From NCBI RefSeq assembly GCF_054482595.1, contig NZ_CM137008.1: a DNA stretch of 64,000 nt; one strand, written 5' to 3'. Shown piece after piece: positions 17,491 through 17,590 of this stretch; within the stretch, counting starts at the first letter, position 1, and the number at the start of each line of letters is the position of its first letter. Under the pieces are notes generated by a model. The model worked only from the letters and a program-made list of their open reading frames with translations. It had not been told where the DNA came from and ran no database searches. A program made the translations under genes and the position numbers.

Positions 17491-17497
17491 GGGCTTG

Positions 17498-17518
17498 CTC
17501 TCATTTCTGCGATGAGAG
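17498..17518. promoter_or_regulatory. candidate LysR-type operator (inverted repeat CTCTCAT-N7-ATGAGAG containing T-N11-A) in divergent promoter region
   Basis: Palindrome centred about 20 bp upstream of AzoR-like start, between divergent LysR gene and operon. Confidence 0.4.
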
Positions 17519-17590
17519 AAGTTTAACTGTTGTTTATATGGTGATTAAATAGACATAATTGAACTTCATTGTTGTGAAAATAGAACAATC

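Follow-up and report, generated by a model that had tools for sequence, protein, structure and literature searches.

Candidate operator of a LysR-type regulator and recurrent start-proximal symmetry in a 100-bp divergent intergenic region of Escherichia coli

The locus studied here raises the question of where an uncharacterised LysR-type regulator is likely to bind within the short region that separates it from the genes it may control. In the window (the whole stretch of 64,000 nucleotides of contig NZ_CM137008.1 that was analysed, which is E. coli DNA), the gene for a LysR-type transcriptional regulator (lysR, ATG at 17591, plus strand) is divergent from a gene encoding an azoR-like flavodoxin-fold oxidoreductase (start codon CAT at 17488-17490, minus strand), and the intergenic region between both start codons covers exactly positions 17491-17590 (100 bp). 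The azoR-like start codon is secure, since the sequence MKILHIDSSP is conserved across all orthologues. A preliminary description of this region had drawn attention to the inverted repeat CTCTCAT-N7-ATGAGAG at 17498-17518 and had interpreted it as the LysR box controlling the adjacent operon. The existence of this repeat was confirmed, and it is exact; 7 nt lie between it and the azoR-like start codon. The analysis presented here suggests, with a probability of about 0.6, that the 100-bp region is an ordinary compact LysR-type control region in which the regulator site is located elsewhere than in the palindrome, the candidate site being a conserved module next to lysR.

Conservation of the intergenic region

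Further regulator/azoR-like gene pairs were found in Salmonella, Citrobacter portucalensis, Hafnia, Rahnella and four enterobacterial assemblies (loci L010, L014, L015/L033 and L016). The pair and its spacing of about 100 bp were kept in at least seven lineages whose genomic neighbourhoods differ, the spacing being maintained in the close lineages. When the conservation of each segment was expressed as the mean pairwise identity among seven lineages, the palindrome resulted to be the least conserved stretch of the intergenic region, with an identity of 0.43, and the module that extends from position 17520 to the lysR start codon reached a value of 0.76. Within this module, GATTAAATAG forms a near-invariant block, and all the loci recovered carry an unchanged TTAAATAG. 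In the palindrome, conservation is limited to TCTCAT, which corresponds to the ribosome-binding site of the azoR-like gene, since this is the segment pairing with the anti-Shine-Dalgarno sequence. The best pairing corresponds to UGAGA (17503-17499), located 8 nt before the AUG; E. coli, Salmonella, Citrobacter and L010 share this position, and the remaining lineages show GGGGA, UGGAU or AGAGG at the Shine-Dalgarno (SD) site. Among the Escherichia haplotypes sampled, an A/G polymorphism at 17503 (8 vs 5) disrupts the palindrome, and no variation was observed in the predicted -10 and -35 hexamers, in TTAAATAG, in the arms of the lysR-proximal dyad described below or in the right arm of the palindrome.

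The same distribution of conservation was observed in loci where the cassette has been eroded. The azoR-like gene has been lost and lysR kept in L011/L019 (Pseudocitrobacter) and in L013, the latter retaining a remnant of the first azoR-like codons, and lysR has been lost and the azoR-like gene kept in L032. The conserved 70-bp module persists in all these eroded cassettes. On the contrary, the palindrome is degenerate where the azoR-like gene has been lost (L011 and L013), even though the module is kept. Regarding the regulator itself, comparison of nine orthologues revealed an identity of 78% in the winged helix-turn-helix domain (residues 1-65) vs 54% in the effector domain, and residues S29, K30, S31, S34, R35 and R36 of the recognition helix are invariant. 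Since the DNA-binding domain is so well conserved, conservation of the operator is also expected.

Analysis of the conserved module revealed a dyad, ATTGTT-N10-AACAAT, at 17568-17589. Dyads bound by proteins usually show conserved arms on either side of a variable spacer, and this is the pattern observed here. In addition, the dyad lies over the regulator leader, and its centre is situated at -65.5 from the predicted azoR-like transcription start, a figure that depends on that prediction. A related sequence, ATTGTT-N10-GACAAT, is found just before the regulator gene in Hafnia, and the dyad is also kept in L011, L013 and L032. From these sequence features, the dyad is predicted to be a better candidate than the palindrome for the primary operator of the regulator. 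A motif common to the dyad arms, (A/C)YTGTTG, has a third copy in AACTGTTG, at the other end of the module, which is kept as AAYNGTTG in the orthologues and might constitute an additional contact for the regulator. The synteny of the pair, together with the conserved module, supports control of the neighbouring genes by the regulator from this region; in this respect the preliminary description stands, except for the palindrome as the site through which control would be exerted.

The module contains other repeated elements. The 9-bp palindrome TGAACTTCA adjoins the dyad, and a direct repeat, AAATAGA, occurs at 17547-17553 and 17578-17584, the copies being 31 bp apart; its second copy is unconserved elsewhere, and the repeat is probably due to chance. 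Additional searches did not extend the set of lineages: a scan of a genome collection with the regulator protein resulted in 4 loci only, all of them from Escherichia or Pseudocitrobacter; a metagenome scan with the conserved DNA block gave 11 loci, all of E. coli/Citrobacter type and with no new lineages; and a tblastn search against plasmids produced zero matches.

Predicted promoters and control model

Scanning with a sigma-70 matrix in the azoR direction revealed the same top match, TTAATC-N17-TA.A.T, at an identical aligned place in all 11 close lineages. The -10 hexamer appears as TAAACT, TATACT, TAGACT, TACACT, TAACAT or TAAAAT, with T1, A2 and T6 kept throughout, and the loci devoid of azoR have TATACT at this position. 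The distance from the predicted -10 to the ATG is 28-30 nt, and an A occupies the seventh position past the hexamer in 6 of 7 lineages. On this basis, the azoR-like promoter and a transcription start at about 17513 are predicted, although the start may be a few bases off. In the opposite direction, the weak lysR promoter candidate at 17530-17559 is an uncertain assignment, since its -10 is polymorphic in Escherichia (positions 17556, 17557 and 17559) and poorly conserved elsewhere. A consensus promoter scan of 17300-17800 detected no site within the intergenic region. It gave one in the azoR-like gene and another within lysR codons (17634-17607, minus strand), where synonymous changes account for its lack of conservation. 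Two other -10 candidates were considered. TATAAA (17538-17533) as the -10 of the azoR-like gene, which would place the hairpin discussed below in the mRNA, was rejected as the main promoter, being conserved in no other lineage, and TATTTA/TTTAAT in the invariant block was rejected on its matrix score.

In the control model that we favour, the regulator would bind the conserved module (17526-17590), with the dyad over its own leader as the primary site and with secondary, activating contacts in the invariant GATTAAATAG block at the -35. From this module it would activate the weak promoter TTAATC-N17-TAAACT and repress its own gene. In LysR-type regulators, the high-affinity dyad is typically centred near -65 (about -55 to -80) of the target start and overlaps the divergent promoter of the regulator, with secondary contacts extending to -35 (PMC4834489). 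The present arrangement resembles the canonical divergent regions of ilvY-ilvC and benM-benA (PMC4834489) in the orientation of the regulator with respect to its target, in the short intergenic region, in the conserved dyad that overlies the regulator leader some 65 bp before the predicted start of the target, and in the conserved block at a weak -35; besides, the module, of about 65-70 bp, has the length of a tetramer footprint. The palindrome cannot occupy the position near -65 of the azoR-like promoter, because its centre (17508) is only 18 bp from the ATG (17490): transcription would have to begin about 47 nt into the coding sequence, and the centre is at about +6 from the predicted start. 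With respect to lysR, the palindrome is located 73-93 bp 5' of the ATG and upstream of the sole lysR promoter candidate, itself weakly supported.

Several points weigh against this model. Unlike the canonical T-N11-A dyads of about 15 bp, the sequence-predicted dyad described here shows even spacing (N10), and the centres of its half-sites are 16 bp apart, a distance that is wide for one LysR-type DNA-binding dimer. The pairs on its axis are T-N10-A and T-N12-A, and the pair T17573-N11-A17585 is one base off axis. The exact contacts in the dyad are uncertain for these reasons. In addition, part of the conservation of the dyad could stem from the ribosome-binding site and leader of lysR. As for the azoR-like promoter, its matrix score does not by itself reach significance in DNA so rich in A and T (P=0.29), and the call is based on positional conservation. 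If the model is right, the likely operator of this uncharacterised regulator shifts from the eye-catching palindrome to the conserved 70-bp module, and this shift indicates which fragments are suited for footprinting and reporter mutagenesis. The regulated set would comprise an azoR-like flavoprotein, a BhsA-like periplasmic protein and a bacterial membrane oxidoreductase of the NOX family.

Table 1. Features of the lysR/azoR-like locus, with positions in the window and mean pairwise identity among lineages
Feature	Position	Strand	Identity	Remarks
Whole palindrome	17498-17518		0.43	
Palindrome left arm, CTCTCAT on plus, AUGAGAG in mRNA	17498-17504	minus	0.59	azoR-like Shine-Dalgarno; predicted +10 to +16
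Palindrome spacer			0.28	
Palindrome right arm, ATGAGAG on plus, CUCUCAU on minus	17512-17518	minus	0.41	Predicted -5 to +2; complementary to the Shine-Dalgarno
Predicted azoR-like transcription start	about 17513	minus		A, seventh nt after the -10; 23-nt leader; inferred
Predicted -10, TAAACT	17525-17520	minus		Top sigma-70 matrix match in azoR direction
Predicted -35, TTAATC	17548-17543	minus		17-nt spacer to the -10
Conserved module	17520-17590		0.76	
AACTGTTG, third copy of (A/C)YTGTTG	17525-17532	plus		Abuts the predicted -10
Weak lysR promoter candidate, TTGTTT-N18-CATAAT	17530-17559	plus		Sigma-70 matrix
GATTAAATAG near-invariant block	17543-17552		0.97	Includes the predicted -35
TGAACTTCA, 9-bp palindrome	17560-17568		0.88	Adjoins the dyad; belongs to the conserved module
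Dyad ATTGTT-N10-AACAAT	17568-17589		0.89 / 1.00 (arms), 0.64 (spacer)	Conserved arms, variable spacer; 1-22 nt upstream of lysR ATG
NOX-like ferric-reductase/FAD/NAD membrane protein gene	15196-16521	minus		441 aa
DUF1471 (BhsA-like) gene	16584-16844	minus		
azoR-like oxidoreductase gene (Flavodoxin_2)	16861-17490	minus		First of the target set
LysR-type transcriptional regulator gene	17591-18487	plus		298 aa; HTH_1 and LysR_substrate domains

Symmetry between the predicted start and the azoR-like start codon

The low sequence conservation of the palindrome does not extend to its symmetry. Inspection of the segment between the predicted -10 and the ATG in the orthologous loci revealed ATCTCA...TGAGAT in Citrobacter, CATTAACG-N6-CGTTAATG in L010, AATCCAT-N9-ATGGATT in L015/L033, an imperfect stem of about 10 bp in Rahnella and a stem of 4+5 bp in L014. 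The outermost pair of the palindrome is C-G in E. coli, A-T in Citrobacter and G-C in Salmonella. The folding energy of the minus strand was better than that of shuffled sequences at P<=0.03 in 7 of 10 lineages, with a minimum free energy of -9.1 kcal/mol (P=0.011) for the segment in the window and a combined Fisher P=1.2e-4 with the window excluded. As a calibration, 45 other upstream regions of the window were subjected to the same folding test, and 4.4% of them reached P<=0.03. In Hafnia (L034), a perfect, A/T-only palindrome of 10+10 bp, TTTAAAAAAT-AC-ATTTTTTAAA, separates the azoR-like SD from the regulator-proximal motifs.

A palindrome originated by chance, as a purine-rich SD that faces a stretch rich in pyrimidines between the -10 and the start, the symmetry having no function, appears unlikely, but it is the alternative that best survives. 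Perfect repeats with 7-nt arms and a loop of 3-12 nt appear at least once in 7.6% of dinucleotide shuffles of the 100-nt region, and the 64-kb window contains 83 repeats of this type, with a frequency of about one per 770 bp. By itself, therefore, the presence of the repeat is unremarkable; the probability of such a repeat in the 38 nt from the predicted -10 to the ATG is 0.016. The common polymorphism that breaks the palindrome and the situation in Salmonella and L016, where none is evident, also agree with a fortuitous origin. What this explanation does not account for is that significant symmetry or structure recurs in independent lineages with differing sequences, with P values calibrated on other upstream regions and with compensatory changes in the outermost pair, and it is this recurrence in orthologues that lifts the palindrome above chance. 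Judging from the aligned sequences, dyad symmetry seems to be selected in the start-to-SD segment independently of its sequence, which argues against a sequence-specific protein site and in favour of a single-strand structure tied to the azoR-like ribosome-binding site. These observations suggest selection for a hairpin masking this site.

The potential effect of such a hairpin depends on where transcription starts. A transcript that starts at 17519 or further upstream contains both arms, and its SD is predicted to be paired to more than 99%, with an unpaired probability of 0.00-0.01; for a transcript from the predicted start at 17513 the unpaired probability is 0.22. Transcripts beginning upstream of 17518 would have the arms forming a hairpin of 7-10 bp and the ribosome-binding site buried, and transcripts from the predicted start would lack the 5' arm. 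Similarly to the leader hairpins that sequester the SD in RNA thermometers and SD-masking stems, one arm is the ribosome-binding site, the stem surpasses shuffled controls in stability, and the structure recurs while the sequence changes between lineages. Unlike in those hairpins, the 5' arm overlaps the predicted -10 or start, so that it may be outside the main transcript, and the element belongs to no Rfam family: a search of both strands of 17200-17900 at E<=10 gave no family, only two chance snoRNA hits.

Other observations count as well against our reading at this point. The 5' arm overlaps the predicted -10 or start in every lineage and, with a start at 17513, positions 17518-17512 are mostly untranscribed; should that start be correct, the recurrent symmetry could not be attributed to a hairpin in the main mRNA. 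Salmonella and L016 show no clear palindrome. Furthermore, the mismatches present in E. coli variants, Citrobacter and Salmonella can be accommodated as G.U pairs on the plus strand and correspond to A.C in the mRNA, a pattern that disfavours an mRNA hairpin and that, resting on 3-4 events, is not significant. Possible explanations are a hairpin that acts only in transcripts from further upstream, a start prediction that is a few bases off, or a symmetry that acts at the DNA level. A more doubtful proposal is that the start-to-SD palindrome is an insulator against read-through that makes output strictly dependent on the regulated start: transcripts from the regulator-activated start would lack the anti-SD arm and be translatable, and transcripts entering from upstream, such as those antisense or initiated spuriously in lysR or in the AT-rich region, would carry both arms and be translationally silent. 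In an architecture that is otherwise textbook, the recurrent palindrome poses a small question on the coupling of start choice to translation.

The interpretation of the palindrome as an operator of the adjacent LysR regulator, either as the primary site or as an extra repressing site over the start, with control of the operon and of lysR itself, is improbable in the light of these data. It is a perfect dyad within a regulator/target intergenic region, and its right arm is invariant in the sampled Escherichia haplotypes. Some LysR-type regulators also have secondary sites overlapping the -10, such as site 3 of BenM, situated about 52 bp from the primary site in benA, and like this site the palindrome is a dyad near the -10 and +1 of the target. 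In contrast with BenM site 3, the palindrome is about 70 bp from the candidate primary site, its half-sites are unrelated to the conserved motif, resembling no conserved block, and it is unconserved in spite of the 78% identity of the DNA-binding domain; a distance of 70 bp between centres is too long for one tetramer. The T-N11-A core attributed to the palindrome was not found on its axis either. Its symmetric pairs are C-N19-G, T-N17-A, C-N15-G, T-N13-A, C-N11-G, A-N9-T and T-N7-A, so the N11 pair on the axis is C17502...G17514, and on-axis T...A pairs occur only at N7, N13 and N17. Pairs of T-N11-A type exist exclusively off axis (T17505/A17517 and T17508/A17520) and are trivial in AT-rich DNA. 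Together with the position of the centre, the polymorphism at 17503 within the species, the coincidence of the left arm with the SD, the unrelated palindromes present at the same spot in other lineages and the decay of the palindrome where the azoR-like gene is lost and lysR stays, these features argue against a LysR box. In addition, the palindrome, previously assigned to the promoter, would be placed inside the transcript by the predicted start.

Slightly less probable still is an operator for a different DNA-binding protein, acting as a repressor over the azoR-like start site. The palindrome covers predicted positions -5 to +16, which is a typical repressor position, and the Hafnia palindrome, with its 2-nt spacer, is more similar to a protein site than to a hairpin. 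Nevertheless, the sequences of the palindromes are wholly different between close lineages, which a conserved trans-acting protein would not tolerate, and the cassette is accompanied by no second regulator gene.

When G.U pairs are allowed, the palindrome grows on the plus strand into a stem of 15 bp (17490-17526, -14.3 kcal/mol, z=-3.5) that takes in the complement of the predicted -10, reaches up to the start codon and is kept by the E. coli variants. Its function as a terminator was ruled out because of the lack of a U-tract and of a plus-strand gene upstream. The least probable explanation attributes to the hairpin a role in RNA from the plus strand, be it a long leader of lysR or a transcript antisense to azoR: the energy of the E. 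coli stem and the G.U pairs that the E. coli, Citrobacter and Salmonella variants keep on this strand only agree with it, but no upstream plus-strand promoter-like site was found in 17300-17800, no plus-strand gene lies upstream, the stem is not followed by a U-tract terminator, and the wobble argument comprises 3-4 events only (P about 0.1). The region of the azoR-like start codon (AUGAAAAUUCUUCAU, 17476-17490, minus strand) has in turn a predicted 5-bp hairpin, AUGAA/UUCAU, that includes the AUG.

Genes and distribution of the locus

The segment 15100-18600 shows 100% identity to the chromosome of E. coli O157:H16 Santai. Within it, the four-gene block at 15196-18487 is missing from K-12 and is located between argP and rpiA, constituting an accessory island found in about 4.5% of the complete genomes of the species. 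The whole block is present in 232 of 5426 complete E. coli genomes, and the intergenic segment in 246. In the remaining complete genomes, including those of K-12 type, all that is left is a short remnant, which is annotated as a LysR substrate-binding fragment. The azoR-like, DUF1471 and NOX-like genes are on the same strand, with successive gaps of 16 and 62 nt; no terminator-like sites were found between the three genes, and the gene order of this set is kept in L006, L014 and L015.

Analysis of the encoded proteins showed that the first gene of the set is AzoR-like only in terms of its Flavodoxin_2 fold: all NCBIfam azoreductase models scored below their cut-offs, and the product does not qualify as a member of the AzoR (FMN-dependent NADH-azoreductase) family, with NF010075 as best match (71.7 bits vs a cut-off of 188). 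The best solved relatives of the 441-aa NOX-like protein are 8qq7/8qt6 (E=6e-26), which we take to be the NOX of Streptococcus pneumoniae, and NOX5. An E. coli protein named EcNOX, possibly this 441-aa product, was selected in a previous study (PMC5676040). Regarding the regulator, the top NCBIfam matches were PRK14997, YafC and AaeR, with scores far under the curated cut-offs (171 vs 380 bits), and for this reason it is not an equivalog of any named regulator. Its best structural matches were 3szp/3t1b (E=5e-36) and 3hhg, labelled in the database only as LysR family regulators and presumably corresponding to AphB of Vibrio cholerae and CrgA of Neisseria, respectively. AphB, CrgA, YafC and AaeR are the closest sequence relatives, and like the regulator they are full-length proteins with a winged helix-turn-helix and an effector domain; the likeness derives from the comparison of protein sequences. 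Literature searches on yqfE and LysR, on LysR, azoreductase and quinone, and on EcNOX gave no paper on the regulator or its start sites. Finally, a perfect 14-bp palindrome, AATGCTTAAGCATT, with 7+7 arms and zero spacer, was found at 17448-17461 within the azoR-like coding sequence, and it is invariant in five aligned E. coli sequences.
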